From positions 380,928,001 through 380,992,000 of the forward strand of contig OZ024741.1 of NCBI GenBank assembly GCA_964016885.1: 64,000 nucleotides of DNA, in the 5' to 3' direction. The position numbers were made by a program, and so were the translations under genes. Within the stretch, counting starts at the first letter, position 1. Every line of letters begins with the position of its first letter. Origin of the DNA: Eledone cirrhosa (lineage: Eukaryota). Under the pieces are notes generated by a model. That model made no database searches and was not told where the DNA came from. It worked only from the letters and a program-made list of their open reading frames with translations. Shown piece after piece: positions 4,666 to 57,610 of this stretch.

Positions 4666-5685
4666 AACTGTTTACGGAAGTGTTATATTTTTTGGCCTTT
4701 AAAGTTGACTGACTGAGAAATCATCATCTTCCATCTTCATCATTATCACCATCATGTTCAATGTGAGTTTTTGTGTGTGATTGTATGTGTTTGTATAGAC
4801 ATTCTAACACACATGCACATTTGGAAGCTGTTAGTACCAACTTTTATGTGATGAAGGTAATAATTATAATTTGCATTGAGTACTGTGTTCCCTTTATCTG
4901 TTCAACAGAAACTTTCAATACTAATCATATATATGATATATAAGTGAGTAGGTAAAGATTTTTTTCTTAACTTGTTTGCTTTTTCCATATTTAATATTAT
5001 TAGGCTCTGAATCTGTTAATTTTATTAACTCTTTCATTGAACCAAATTCAGTATAAGTTGGACACTCTGTATGTATGTATTTTTCTATATTTGTATCTAT
5101 ACTCCTGTAGAGGTATGTATATCGTCATTTAATATACTATACACTCTTTATGGTAGAGTTAAAGTTTGGCGCAATCAAACTAATTTCCAGCAGCACGTTG
5201 CCTGCCATAGTCCACTGTCCTTCCCTCCTGCTGGTCACTTGTCCCTTGATAGTTCTTTCATTCGAAATCTTCATTGACAGCGAATGGCTGGGAATTCTTG
5301 TCTTGAATATATATATATATATATATATAAATAAATAAATACAATATCGGAGAAAGCTTTTTAGCGATACTCCGGCCAAATTCCAACTCACTCAACAAAC
5401 ATTAGGAAATAAGTGATTATATTCCCAATTAAGCGTTCGAGGTGCTAACTAAAAGTATTGCGTGGAAAATTGGCTGTATTATTTAATATGAGACATATCG
5501 AATATATATATATATATATATATATATATATACAGTATATATACAGTTGTCGGGTTGCAGGTAAATGTGTCCGTAGAAGGTATACCGGTTGAGCACTCGA
5601 TGCTCACGCAGAGCAGAGTATAATATTATAAAGAACGAGGAATCAGGTTTGCATTATATCACATTTATAATTATATATATATATA

Positions 5686-5814
5686 GGGTGGGTAAAATTC
5701 TCGAGATCCATGGATGAGTTCCCTCCAGCGGTCTCTGTTCTTCATCATCGCTGCCATGTCCTGCGTCTCCAAGAGACTAGTGTCTGTCCTTAGGGCATCA
5801 ACATATGTCAACCT
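5686..5814 (-). pseudogene. RTE-type LINE 3'-terminal fragment
   Basis: Translates [43 protein letters not shown], nearly identical to the end of 16567-16893; ends in (TA)n. Confidence 0.8.
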
Positions 5815-7682
5815 CGAACCTAGGCGACACGATAGCACACACAAATAGGAGAAATATACGCAAACACATGCACCATAACAACCAGCCACTAGCACAACCC
5901 AAAACGAAACCACACAGACAAAAATCCACAACAACCGACGTGCCAGCTCCACACAGAATACAAACGACCGGCAACGTAACAACACATCCGTAACCCCCAA
6001 CTGCAACTGCAAAAAGTGGGTAGAATACCCATTGAATGAGGAGTGCCTCGTTAAAAACATTATTTACAGGTGCGATGTCACAGCCGGCCTAAAAGTGTAC
6101 TCCTACATAGGGGCGATCTCGACTACGTTTAAGGAGCGCTGGTACAACCACAAAAGTTTCTTCAAACACAGGCCCAAACGCTCCCAAACAAGACTAGCGG
6201 ACTTGACCTGGGACCTCAAAGACAAGAACATAGAATACCAGATCAAATGGTCAGTTAAAAGACGCGTGGCCCAACTCCCCAACCATAGAAACCACTGCAG
6301 GTTATGCCTGGCCGTGGCGGTTGAGATCATTAAATTGAAATCGGCCATAAACTCAAGATCTGACATAATAATAAACTGCATACACACCAGGATGAGCACC
6401 TTATCCGCACAAACATTTGGCCGAGGGCCAGCCACTAACCCTGACTCAACATGGGGATAACCACCTTTGCCTTGCCACACCTTCCCTCATCTCAGTACCT
6501 TTGTCTTCTCTAACATGTAACCCATTATTAAGATCAGATCTTGTAAATAGCATGTCGCACCCATCACCACCACCAAGCACACAGCCATACTTCCACAACC
6601 ATCAATATCACCAATACTTTGCCTACCCAGACATTTGACCAGGTGCCATTGACTAACCCTACATCGAAATCGACATAGGGATACTCACCAATACCTTACC
6701 ACACCATCCCTCATTTCAGTACCATTGTTTTCTCTGTGTCTTCTCTGTCAGTTATTAACTTGTAACACATCGTAACATTCGATCCTGTATATATCATGTC
6801 GTACCCCCCCCCCCCCACCAAACACATCGCCATACATCGACCATCTCTCATTTCAGTACCATTGTTTTCTCTGTCGCTTTTTGACCTGTAATCCATCGCA
6901 ATATTCGATCCTGTAAATATCATGTTGTACCCATCACCCCCACCACCACCAAGCACATCGCCATACTTCCACAACCATCAACATCACCAACACATAGCAT
7001 GCCTATCATCCCACCCTAAACAACGCATATGTGTGTGTCTGTGTGTAAGTATGTTTGTACAACCGCCATCCCCACTGGCTATATATATATATATATATAT
7101 ATATATATATACACATGTGTATGTATATATAATATATTTGTCAGGCTGCGTGTGTATATGTGTATCTCCTTATAGAATGAGCCCCCTTAACAATCCACCA
7201 CCACAAATATCACCCCCCATAAACACCACAACATTTCATCCTTATCATAAACAACATCACATGCACACCACACACAAACATCAGCGACATTTACAGGCCA
7301 AACTGTCTACCGCCAACCAGCCCCCCCCCCCCCCCCCCCCCCACCACCACACACACCACCACCCACTTAAACCTACGACCGGAAACAACAAATTATCACC
7401 CCCCCCCCCACATACACTACAGGCAAAAACATCCCTATGAGTTAATCCAGCAATCAAAACAAACTTTACTGACCACCATAGGAACATCTGACTTTATCAT
7501 ACGACATGTATATTCATTTTTCCATTAACATTACAAGGGGTCTGACGAGCTGCGGATAACAGAGCCGGGTCAGATCGATACAGATGGAATCTTGAGCTGA
7601 TCAGTGGCGAAACGTGCGTCACCAACCAATAGACGTAATGAAGGAGTAACCAATCGTCCTTGTTATTTTATTTCACTAGACA
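5808..7682 (+). mobile_element. 5'-truncated Penelope-like element (GIY-YIG endonuclease, 3' UTR, pLTR)
   Basis: CNCxxxxxxPLxxxCL linker, IIY...YIG...FKERWYNH...CRLCL...CIH (ORF 6032-6460), tandem degenerate 3' UTR repeats, HHR at 7539-7623, ends at a TA tract. Confidence 0.85.
7539..7623 (+). ncRNA. minimal type-I hammerhead ribozyme
   Basis: ggt CTGACGA [stem II gctgc...gtggc] GAAAC GTGC GTC acc; stem I is short. Confidence 0.65.
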
Positions 7683-7726
7683 CATATATATTTATAAGAT
7701 CAAAAGATGGTTAAAAGAGTTCCATG

Positions 7727-7797
7727 TATTTTATTATGCGCATTTCAAAAACAAATATCATCATGCAATAACATTTGTGTTTTCGTCAGATAAAATA
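7727..7797 (-). ncRNA. hammerhead ribozyme (sense pLTR copy)
   Basis: reverse complement of 9698-9768. Confidence 0.85.
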
Positions 7798-55879: not shown

Positions 55880-57079
55880 CAACACAAGAAGATGTGAACT
55901 CCCCTCAAGCTATAGGGACTTCTACAGAACATGAAAACACCTCTCGGTCAGACCTCCCTCAAGCTATATGGGCAGTAACAACACCCTAGGTTGTGAACTC
56001 CCCTCAAGCCATAGGGACCAACCCAGGCTGAGCAGACACCATGATAGCCTAGAGATAGAATCGGACACAGCCATTATAATTTGGCCAACATCTATATAAC
56101 ACAAACACTTTTAATTTACTAGATTTCTGATTTTCAAGTTCCAATCTTAAATCTTGATTTCTCTTTATTAATTTGTTATTTGTTTTCTGCCCTCTTCACT
56201 GTATCACCTTATATTTATTATTAAGTTGAGATTGATTATAACACAAACACATTTAGTTTGATTATTTCATCTTAACATCTTGTCTCATACCAATCTATCC
56301 AACATATTCTGACCTTGAGATTGGTTATAGCACACACACACTTTATCCTACATTATTTCTCACTTCTCCATCTTTATTTTCATTACTTTTTCACCAATTT
56401 TTCATTTATTCTTTATCATTTATTCTCTATTTATTTATTTATTTTCAAATTATACAAATTATATTAATTATTTTATTATATTATTTATTTATTTTCTGTT
56501 TTCTTCATTTATTGCCTTATATTTCTTCATATACATGGAAGAAACACCCCCCACCACCACCACTATGATGGTGGCAGGAGGGATGAAGAAAAAAACACAC
56601 ACTGGATACTTCTAAATTGTTAGCAGCAGCAAGATATAAGCTGACCACAACACCAACAACACTACCAAAATAATGGTAGAGGTCAAATGTACTGAACAAT
56701 AGCAGGCAAAAACACTACAGGGAGCCTCACCCCAGAAAGAATTCTATAGAATTCTGATTGAGGAATGCTCTCAGAACTGACCATTGGGAAGTTTGACACT
56801 TTTTTTGTTATTTTGTTCCTTTAACACCTTGTCCCTTCTACCATTTTATCAATTTTTAAGCTAACCCCAACAATAACAACACTTAGAATGAGGAATGTTC
56901 TAATAACTGACCAATGAGAGGAGAAGAGGACCTTTGACACTGAAATTCGTTTGTTTGAATTCATATGACTCCAGTTCCTCAGTGAAATAACAACCCAACA
57001 AGGAACTGGGCATATCAGAGTATTGACAATATTATACACTTAAATAACATATGTACTTGTCTATACCATACTAATTCAA

Positions 57080-57134
57080 ACTGCCTGAAGAGGTCACAGC
57101 CAAAGATGGCTGTCACTGAAATATATATAGCAGT
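57080..57134 (+). ncRNA. hammerhead ribozyme (3' pLTR)
   Basis: identical to 52945-52999. Confidence 0.88.
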
Positions 57135-57225
57135 AATAAACGAAGCTAAATTTTAATCATTTGACTTTTATTTAACTTTATTTTATATATATATATATAT
57201 ATATATATATATACACACACACACA

Positions 57226-57610
57226 CAATGATATTAAATAAATGGAAACTATATTTATAAAACCATATTTATTCTATTATATATATTTCAAGGGTACCAA
57301 AGCTTTGGTACGCTTTCACCAGATAAAATACAAAGTTTGTTTTATAAATTTTGACATAACCAGGAAAAGATACCTTAACTGACATGTCAAAATTTATAAA
57401 ACAAACTTTGTATTTTATCTGATGAAAGCGTACCAAAGTTTTGGTAACCTTGAAATATATATAATAGAATAAATATGGTTTTATAAATATAGTTTCCATT
57501 TATTTAATATCATTGAATATTATACTCTAGAAAACTTGTCGAGTGCTCTGAATCAGTTATAAACATTTATATTTGTTGAATTACCAACAAATTGAATATC
57601 CCTTTTGCTT
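57226..57610. mobile_element. non-coding fold-back mini-PLE with two inverted HHRs
   Basis: Arms 57226-57357 and 57384-57515; right HHR intact, left has CTGGTGA; same family as 10650-11040. Confidence 0.85.
57411..57471 (+). ncRNA. hammerhead ribozyme
   Basis: tattttat CTGATGA [aagcgtaccaa...ttggtaacctt] GAAAT ATAT ATA atagaata. Confidence 0.82.

Follow-up and report, generated by a model that had tools for sequence, protein, structure and literature searches.

Penelope-like elements (PLEs) encode reverse transcriptases (RTs) that form the sister group of the telomerase RT (PMC8557442), and how they choose the point at which copying of the template starts, and why their insertions consist of inverted arms with an optional tail, are standing questions. 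The closest described system is PAc, a Poseidon PLE that initiates internally at two sites in vitro and requires RNA 3' of those sites (Frangieh et al. 2024, PMC11167929); its protein extends both DNA strands and is modelled as a dimer (PMC11167929). In the published texts available to us, the explanations on offer for start and tail are resolution by the endonuclease (EN), self-priming, or internal initiation that is left unexplained. A second point of reference is the Hydra clade of PLEs, for which RWK, a change of DKG to DKT, a CxCx5C linker, and late CxxC and CxH motifs form the diagnostic set (PMC8557442). Here we analyze 64,000 nucleotides of the Eledone cirrhosa genome (GenBank assembly GCA_964016885.1, contig OZ024741.1, positions 380,928,001 to 380,992,000, forward strand; hereafter the window), where nested inverted-repeat units crowd (TA)n runs, many of them with hammerhead-like cores. 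In the Hydra-type PLEs of this genome, a small covarying hairpin stands behind each of two fixed 3' ends of the inserted copies. This twin hairpin is a real, clade-wide and apparently undescribed cis-element; internal two-site initiation itself has already been published (PMC11167929).

Two fixed 3' ends and a duplicated hairpin

Six window families were sampled throughout the 3.0 Gb genome, family A with a query that contained the tail and D, G, I, H and J with tail-free queries; a further sample comprised 1.0 Mb taken by place and 60 additional loci (L-numbered loci are stretches fetched outside the window). Among 409 copies from eight families, 206 end at a first site (site 1, the short end) and 146 at a second (site 2, the long end), 38 continue, 13 end elsewhere and 6 lie at a locus edge; 352 of the 365 mapped ends fall on the two sites. 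Nine of the 13 off-site ends belong to family A, where they are probably due to diverged subfamilies. Family E used as a genome-wide query gave no matches, and the evidence for it comes from 6–7 copies. The original prediction, made from the window alone, held that shorter arms stop just ahead of a hairpin kept in the longer arm. Its eleven motifs all lie where it had placed them, window short arms end 1–9 nt ahead of each, and junctions, far from being uniform along the tail, cluster sharply just upstream of hairpins. In run X1, one of the independent DNA runs compared with a T9 copy, 130 contigs have a loose (TA)n end at 1419 and 112 have one at 1507, positions that correspond to −3 of hairpin 1 and −4 of hairpin 2. 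A 29-nt tail proposed for T9 was rejected as an artefact from a TA run within the hairpin loop. A look-up of RNA data sets listed none with the T9 5' region.

In a survey of ends that was blind to the motif, copies extending past the long end run straight into a second hairpin. Such a hairpin 2 follows the long end in E, G, Gb, H, I, J, T2, T9, T18, T49, a relative of A, L092, L208 and L086, a list that excludes C, D, B, T12 and T19, whose run-through copies are absent from the sample. The order of the element is hammerhead, hairpin 1, spacer, hairpin 2 and ATG; inserted copies have two alternative 3' ends, and 1–13 nt past each of them stands one hairpin. What has been called the "tail" is therefore the spacer separating the two hairpins, and its length in motif-bearing Hydra elements is 54–145 nt. 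Hairpin 2 lies outside long-ended copies and is therefore readable only on the template. In the G group, hairpin 2 carries a 60-nt upper insert. L286 (328–360, minus strand) has a reverse-strand copy of the hairpin at the expected place of hairpin 1, which suggests an inverted junction near the start codon.

The consensus, in shorthand RYUC-N...N'-UN-GARY-RCU, consists of a 4-bp stem (RYUC/GARY), a fifth pair with an upper stem that varies, a bulge of 2 nt whose first base is U, and an unpaired RCU. The plain hairpin first described thus lacked the 2-nt 3' bulge and the fifth covarying pair of the true form, and the family J partner, given there as a weaker GGAG, proved to be GTGGAGAAC, ending at 16260. 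Covariation was tested with arms picked by a score without a pairing term; the set of 89 hairpins leaves out ten own-genome sites under the score cut and includes mis-parsed E1 and L289. Watson-Crick pairing at pair 5 holds for 57 of 61 metagenome hairpins (shuffles 31.9) and for 81 of 89 overall, with all four pair types present, and at pair 1 for 82 of 89 (G-C 69, A-U 10, U-A 3; shuffles 59.5); pairs 3 and 4 never vary and are hence uninformative. Slid and unbulged pairing controls did not rise above chance, with the exception of one (2 of 89 cells). A bulge-free stem and a pair between bases −1 and +1 were both rejected, neither exceeding shuffles. Across the protein tree, all 34 tips have pair 5 of hairpin 1 paired, with 7 changes on one side, 8 on the other and 8 joint; the fifth pair of hairpin 2 is more fixed (C-G in 32 of 35). 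MAFFT misaligned the 5' arms of 60 hairpins, and anchored parsing with a small covariance model was used instead. This model, built from seven metagenome hairpins, gave 50 matches in 27 held-out loci, located at 5' untranslated regions (UTRs) and copies of the pseudo-long terminal repeat (pLTR), and the held-out alignment, which leans toward the model, contains 39 two-sided cells vs 13.7. The compensatory variation that had been read from a few window hairpins is thus upheld by pairing-blind arm choice, tree counts and held-out alignment.

The motif is also well above chance: GCTCC-N4-12-GTTGAGCAC occurs 1,239 times in the genome vs 12 times for the reversed control, and the strict motif caller gives 86 calls when run at 3,000 random positions. 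When the seven-hairpin model was applied to the window, its top seven ranks were six sites already noted and the second H copy, with weak E-values (0.02–2.7), and the long-looped J, I and E1 copies were missed. The proposed spacing of about 50–65 nt from the hammerhead agrees with the 52–63 nt measured from the end of stem III in five ACTC/GAGT cases (42 nt in G). Sites that had been overlooked are family P, the second copies in H and E, and family O (Table 1). The last was an unplanned check: the hairpin, in L041, starts 13 nt beyond the window edge and 5 nt past the last base shared with the short arm.

Pairing of AU-rich template with (TA)n target had been suggested as well, and the TA microhomology at junctions does exceed chance. 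At 31 sites, the last template-only base has a median position of −9 (range −13 to −4) and the last flank-shared base a median of −5. Microhomology of at least 2 nt is present at 20 of 30 sites vs 12.1 under blunt joining (p 0.002), in a test that left out the hand-entered E1 and seven further sites skipped or lacking a repeat flank. A UA-rich patch at about −8 to −4 of the hairpins matches the (TA)n target, and TAT/ATA starts peak at −8 to −6 (18, 22 and 17 of 59 metagenome hairpins, vs 1–6 further upstream). Pairing of the UA patch with the target looks favoured, not obligatory.

The motif as a Hydra-clade element

A metagenome scan with homolog alignment yielded 78 loci of about 42–56% protein identity, 51 of them with at least 150 nt upstream and 39 once near-duplicates were removed. 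By a strict regular expression, 24 of these 39 relatives carry two copies of the motif, 10 one and 5 none, the last appearing by eye to be 5'-truncated; two copies occurred in 35 of 3,900 shuffles, 6 of 325 open reading frame (ORF) windows and 1 of 39 reverse strands. A sequence-only score gave two copies in 27, one in 7 and none in 5. The hairpins are spaced 54–75 nt apart in 27 relatives, and the ATG follows stem 2 by 13–58 nt. The relatives' own 3' pLTRs were compared with their 5' pLTRs in 26 rows, of which 14 were removed (12 at contig ends, one mis-anchored and one that runs on); among the 12 informative loci, 11 end at −4 to +1 of a hairpin (L289 placed by eye).

The original prediction saw the motif in unrelated PLE families, a claim that does not hold: every motif family that can be linked to a protein belongs to the Hydra clade. 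Near-full proteins have RW[KR], DK[TS] and late CxxC in 27 of 27, CxH in 26 and CxCx5C in 23 (CxCx4-7C in 26), CCHH is absent from motif-linked endonucleases (judged by eye), and insertion into (TA)n and a canonical hammerhead are present. The clade assignment is one by diagnostic motifs, the protein tree comprising relatives without reference PLE clades, and it covers protein-linked families; H, I, P, F and C have no linked protein. In the window, units D, E, G and O and a remnant at 5975–6400 match Hydra-type proteins. A Neptune/Nematis label was rejected, since the motif families have CxCx5C instead of the Cx2-5CxxC linker and CCHH. Among the consensuses given in PMC8557442, Hydra-1_Ajap has both hairpins at its start and Hydra-2_Amil ends in a hairpin-1 tail (both by eye), while Hydra-1_Obim has weak motif variants only. 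The hammerhead of L324 is identical to the Penelope-1_NV row of the same paper (PMC8557442).

Of 28 two-ended families collected blind to the motif, 9 pass the strict caller and 3 more have variants by eye; 10, with tails of 39–64 nt, have no motif, and the remaining 6 are artefacts. Of the ten motif-less families, the two that could be assigned are tied to the non-Hydra endonuclease of family M (19 and 4 copies). Because the linkable families are all Hydra and other tailed families lack the motif, the hairpin is best read as one inherited element of a single clade, not as convergence among unrelated families. The non-coding tandem monomers H and I retain both hairpins. A selenoprotein lead from rows with two TGA codons was rejected, the TGAs lying upstream of the ATG.

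Several observations concern tails outside these families. Family N (48700–49463 and 39827–40107; T6/T11) has two 3' ends, and after each of them comes a small hairpin of GTGC...ACTAA appearance, different from the Hydra motif; this hints that twin signals are general among PLEs. Family M and L048 have a 60-nt tail, and the continuations of the short and the long end both open with ATATCG. The PAc RNA as printed carries GACA(A)CAC twice near the start sites, by eye (PMC11167929). Family L (21540–22146) is a hammerhead unit; its tail has a GAGCAC-like 3' arm but lacks a clear RYUC 5' arm, and the motif may have decayed or be a variant.

Probable priming at both ends of a break

Among 146 head-to-head pairs, 136 could be classified, and 124 of these (91%) combine one short and one long arm vs 50% expected. 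The proportion is 88 of 99 when family A is left out and 78 of 90 after merging units of the same size. Of 26 assignable units, 15 have the body in the short-ended arm and 11 have it in the long-ended one. Palindromic inversion centres number 85 of 124 near-symmetric units, counted by a method that inflates the class, and family A units fold at hammerhead stem II, which is likely an annealing point of two cDNAs. Short near-symmetric units folding at a palindrome include 10734–11039, 57230–57515, 42580–42911 and L002–L030. From the geometry, we infer that both arms are antisense strands joined to the target's two 3' ends.

These data have led us to a model for integration of Hydra-type PLEs. 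The original prediction that the hairpin is a cis-element placing the RT for internal priming is retained as regards internal priming, in view of the clustered junctions, the covariation and the TA microhomology. Its single start signal is given up: because a second copy of the motif marks the long end as well, the model moves from one start signal to two. We think it probable that two RTs dock on the hairpins and that each is primed by one end of the break. The element's endonuclease would cut both strands of (TA)n; with an RT bound to each of the two hairpins of a single RNA, each RT would take one DNA 3' end, aligned on a UA patch of 2–5 nt, and copy 5'-ward from the aligned end. The two cDNAs would then join head to head, often at a palindrome such as the hammerhead stem, and the product would be an inverted unit whose arms differ, one being short and the other long. 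For non-coding tandem monomers, which retain both hairpins, mobilisation would be in trans. The full form of this proposal is a programmed twin priming, in which one RNA bears an RT pair on twin hairpins with telomerase-like alignment patches, and a double-strand cut in (TA)n supplies each RT with one end as primer; we give it about an even chance.

A number of observations weigh against this model. Its mechanistic steps are all deduced from DNA, and the six families sampled genome-wide are over-represented through our own targeted searches. Twelve of the 136 classified units are not short+long: 9 are long+long (some through internal tandem copies) and 3 short+short. The 3' pLTR of L348 ends at −62. 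The offset to the hairpin is not rigid: depending on the family, the last template-only base lies anywhere between −13 and −4. Microhomology is missing at 4 of 31 sites, and several long ends of G join (CA)n without any; PAc initiation is likewise reported without homology to the cut DNA (PMC11167929). Thermodynamic folding is weak (14 of 15 segments have z above −2 vs shuffles), and folding would therefore need protein. Strand evidence for RNA is mild (pairs 6–8, G-U 26 vs A-C 14), and bulge and tail vary: T19 has a 1-nt bulge, J an A.A first pair, and I2 and T49 a different tail.

Four other explanations were weighed. If the hairpins were RNA-processing signals, the transcript would be cut or trimmed just 5' of each, and ordinary target-primed reverse transcription would proceed from the RNA 3' ends so created. 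Such a mechanism would suit ends that are fixed and lie upstream of a structured motif, and Anolis RNA-seq read ends coincide with PAc start sites (PMC11167929). A cut at site 1 would, however, block site-2 cDNA on the same RNA, yet long arms cross site 1; two RNAs would require an additional device to give the 91% short+long pairing; and PAc initiates internally on uncut RNA in vitro (PMC11167929). Processing is in our judgement unlikely. Alternatively, each hairpin may be an RT start signal that acts on two RNAs or in successive events, with an asymmetric complex enforcing one site per end and hairpin 2 perhaps also aiding translation of the ORF. All junction and covariation data are compatible with this scheme, and the position of hairpin 2, 13–58 nt ahead of the ATG, and its nearly fixed C-G fifth pair would suit a part in translation; the non-coding H and I monomers nevertheless retain both hairpins, and the 54–75-nt spacing in 27 relatives is what is expected if both act on one molecule, which leaves the scheme improbable.

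The hairpins might also be read as DNA, where the endonuclease would trim a longer integration intermediate. Craig et al. 2021 attribute the tail to EN-mediated resolution (PMC8557442), the D. virilis tail is required for EN recognition, as cited in PMC11167929, and the G-U excess is only mild; but long-ended copies lack hairpin 2, so that trimming there would require all cDNAs to begin yet further 3', the two sites account for all but 13 of 365 ends, and the UA patch is accounted for by priming and not by trimming. We regard trimming as quite improbable. Finally, a single cDNA from site 2 that folds back, with second-strand synthesis halting at hairpin 1 to give the short arm, would account for short+long pairing and the palindromic inversion centres and accords with the self-priming favoured by Arkhipova 2013 (PMC3846280), but it is very improbable because the short arm would have to lie within the long arm, whereas in 15 of 26 units, including window D, E and O, it carries body that the long arm lacks.

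Window features and comparison with known systems

The window features are collected in Table 1. The EN-bearing (EN+) Penelope-like identity is established for the E unit (49495–57185) and the intact copies L389 and L418, which have a single ORF with RT and GIY-YIG domains, hammerhead pLTRs and a partial tandem/inverted layout. Pfam gave no domain match, the domain calls resting on motifs and homologs. An Rfam scan of the window gave no matches at gathering level, and a second scan, which covered five loci, gave 45 weak matches, none covering the hairpins (selenocysteine insertion sequence, ribozyme and small nucleolar RNA identities did not hold).

Table 1. Coordinates of hairpins, arms and associated features in the window
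Feature	Position	Strand	Remarks
Orphan hairpin 1	5592..5619	-	in long-end fragment about 5535-5672
Family D short-ended arm	7690..9609	-	bears Hydra endonuclease remnant 8722-9609
Family D hairpin 1	9813..9840	+	within long arm 9593-9891
Family G hairpin 1	10129..10152	-	partner short arm end 14410 (+); hairpin 2 found in L109, L389, L408
Family A hairpin 1	10708..10730	-	partner short arm end 11039 (+)
Family J hairpin 1, long upper insert	16194..16260	+	short arm end 14554 (-); hairpin 2 found in L383
Family I hairpin 1, GUUC/GAAC variant	18663..18700	-	second copy 19149-19186; non-coding 486-nt tandem monomer
Family I hairpin 2, decayed in window	19049..19069	-	UCUC/GAGA form in other copies, e.g. 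L137
Family H hairpin 1, A-U fifth pair	19927..19954	+	second copy 20462-20489; non-coding 546-nt tandem monomer
Family H hairpin 2	20010..20054	+	immediately past long end
Family C hairpin 1	42917..42944	+	
Family M, non-Hydra PLE unit	43475..47350	.	own tail, no motif (negative control)
Family P hairpin, G-C fifth pair	47905..47929	+	tandem copy's short end at equivalent place, 48533
Family E inverted arm	49495..50500	-	long (site 2) end = 49495
Family E hammerhead-like core	52950..52994	+	further cores 57085+ and 49695-
Family E hairpin 1, internal pLTR copy	53055..53097	+	intact GAGTGCT form in inverted copy 49548-49590 minus
Family E hairpin 2	53154..53175	+	begins 4 nt past last base shared with long end (49495 arm); ATG 28 nt on
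Family E ORF, frameshifted	53203..55879	+	Hydra-type RT + C-terminal GIY-YIG; RWK (IRWKAF), DKT, CxCx5C
Family E 3' pLTR	56764..57185	+	short (site 1) end = 57185
Family B hairpin 1	57524..57547	+	
Family O long arm	63779..64000	+	hairpin 1 starts at L041 base 13, outside window; short arm end 58835 (-)

Intact Hydra ORFs of 714–719 amino acids, which would suit biochemical work, are present in several other loci of the same genome (L389, L390, L394–L396, L403–L408 and L410–L412). The non-coding tandem monomers at 19728–20539 (546 nt), 18598–19458 (486 nt) and 47639–48533 (628 nt) are retrozyme-like; a regular-expression scan of the family H monomer found no canonical hammerhead core. The 3' UTRs of G-group elements (11036–13820 in the window) carry long (CA)/(TA)-rich stretches, and because these repeats travel with the element, part of the genomic microsatellite load is element-borne. 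An inverted pair of another element (5687–5814 and 16762–16889), without hammerhead or hairpin, encloses several nested insertions.

A covarying motif of 25 nt that stands once behind each end throughout a clade offers a concrete cis-element for which mutants are ready-made, and the short+long rule of 91% yields a quantitative prediction for a mechanism of two-ended integration. Curators can use the motif as a marker of Hydra-clade ends and of their non-coding dependants, and the hairpin, if portable, would be a short handle by which an RT could be made to start inside an RNA. Programmed twin priming, if true, would explain the optional tail, the inverted pLTR and microsatellite targeting by one device, and analogous twin signals may then exist in other PLE clades.

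Two well-known systems offer partial parallels. In the twin priming of L1, a single RNA is primed by two DNA ends and the 5' part comes out inverted; there, the first primer acts at the poly(A) tail and the second at a random internal place, whereas both sites of Hydra PLEs are fixed and bear the same motif. Telomerase RNA has an internal template set by an adjacent protein-bound structure and pairs over a short stretch with a repeat primer; Hydra PLEs differ in their long processive copying, in having two sites per RNA and in showing no repeat addition.

In the openly available literature (including PMC4209133, PMC5737381 and PMC10085705) and Rfam, a search that extended to neither subscription papers nor Repbase notes, we found no twin motif or one-site-per-end rule. 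Non-LTR retrozymes (PMC7229834; bioRxiv 10.64898/2026.07.22.740005) resemble H, I and P in being pLTR-derived non-coding tandem monomers; the passages available name no RT-recognition motif, and the word "hairpin" is absent from both main texts. The Hydra clade of Craig et al. 2021 shares RWK, DKT, CxCx5C, late CxxC/CxH, the canonical hammerhead, (TA)n insertion and a short single ORF with the elements described here, and differs in its tails (30–40 nt there vs 54–145 nt here); the Hydra section of that paper describes no tail structure or 5'-UTR motif, and the motif stands unremarked in its consensuses (PMC8557442). PAc differs in belonging to the Poseidon clade and in starting inside the ORF, in a stem-loop that is rich in AC, and the available text reports no duplicated motif, covariation, one-site-per-end rule or primer homology; it is like the Hydra-type elements in its two internal starts with a tail between them, in the cutting and extension of both strands, and in its AT-rich targets (PMC11167929).

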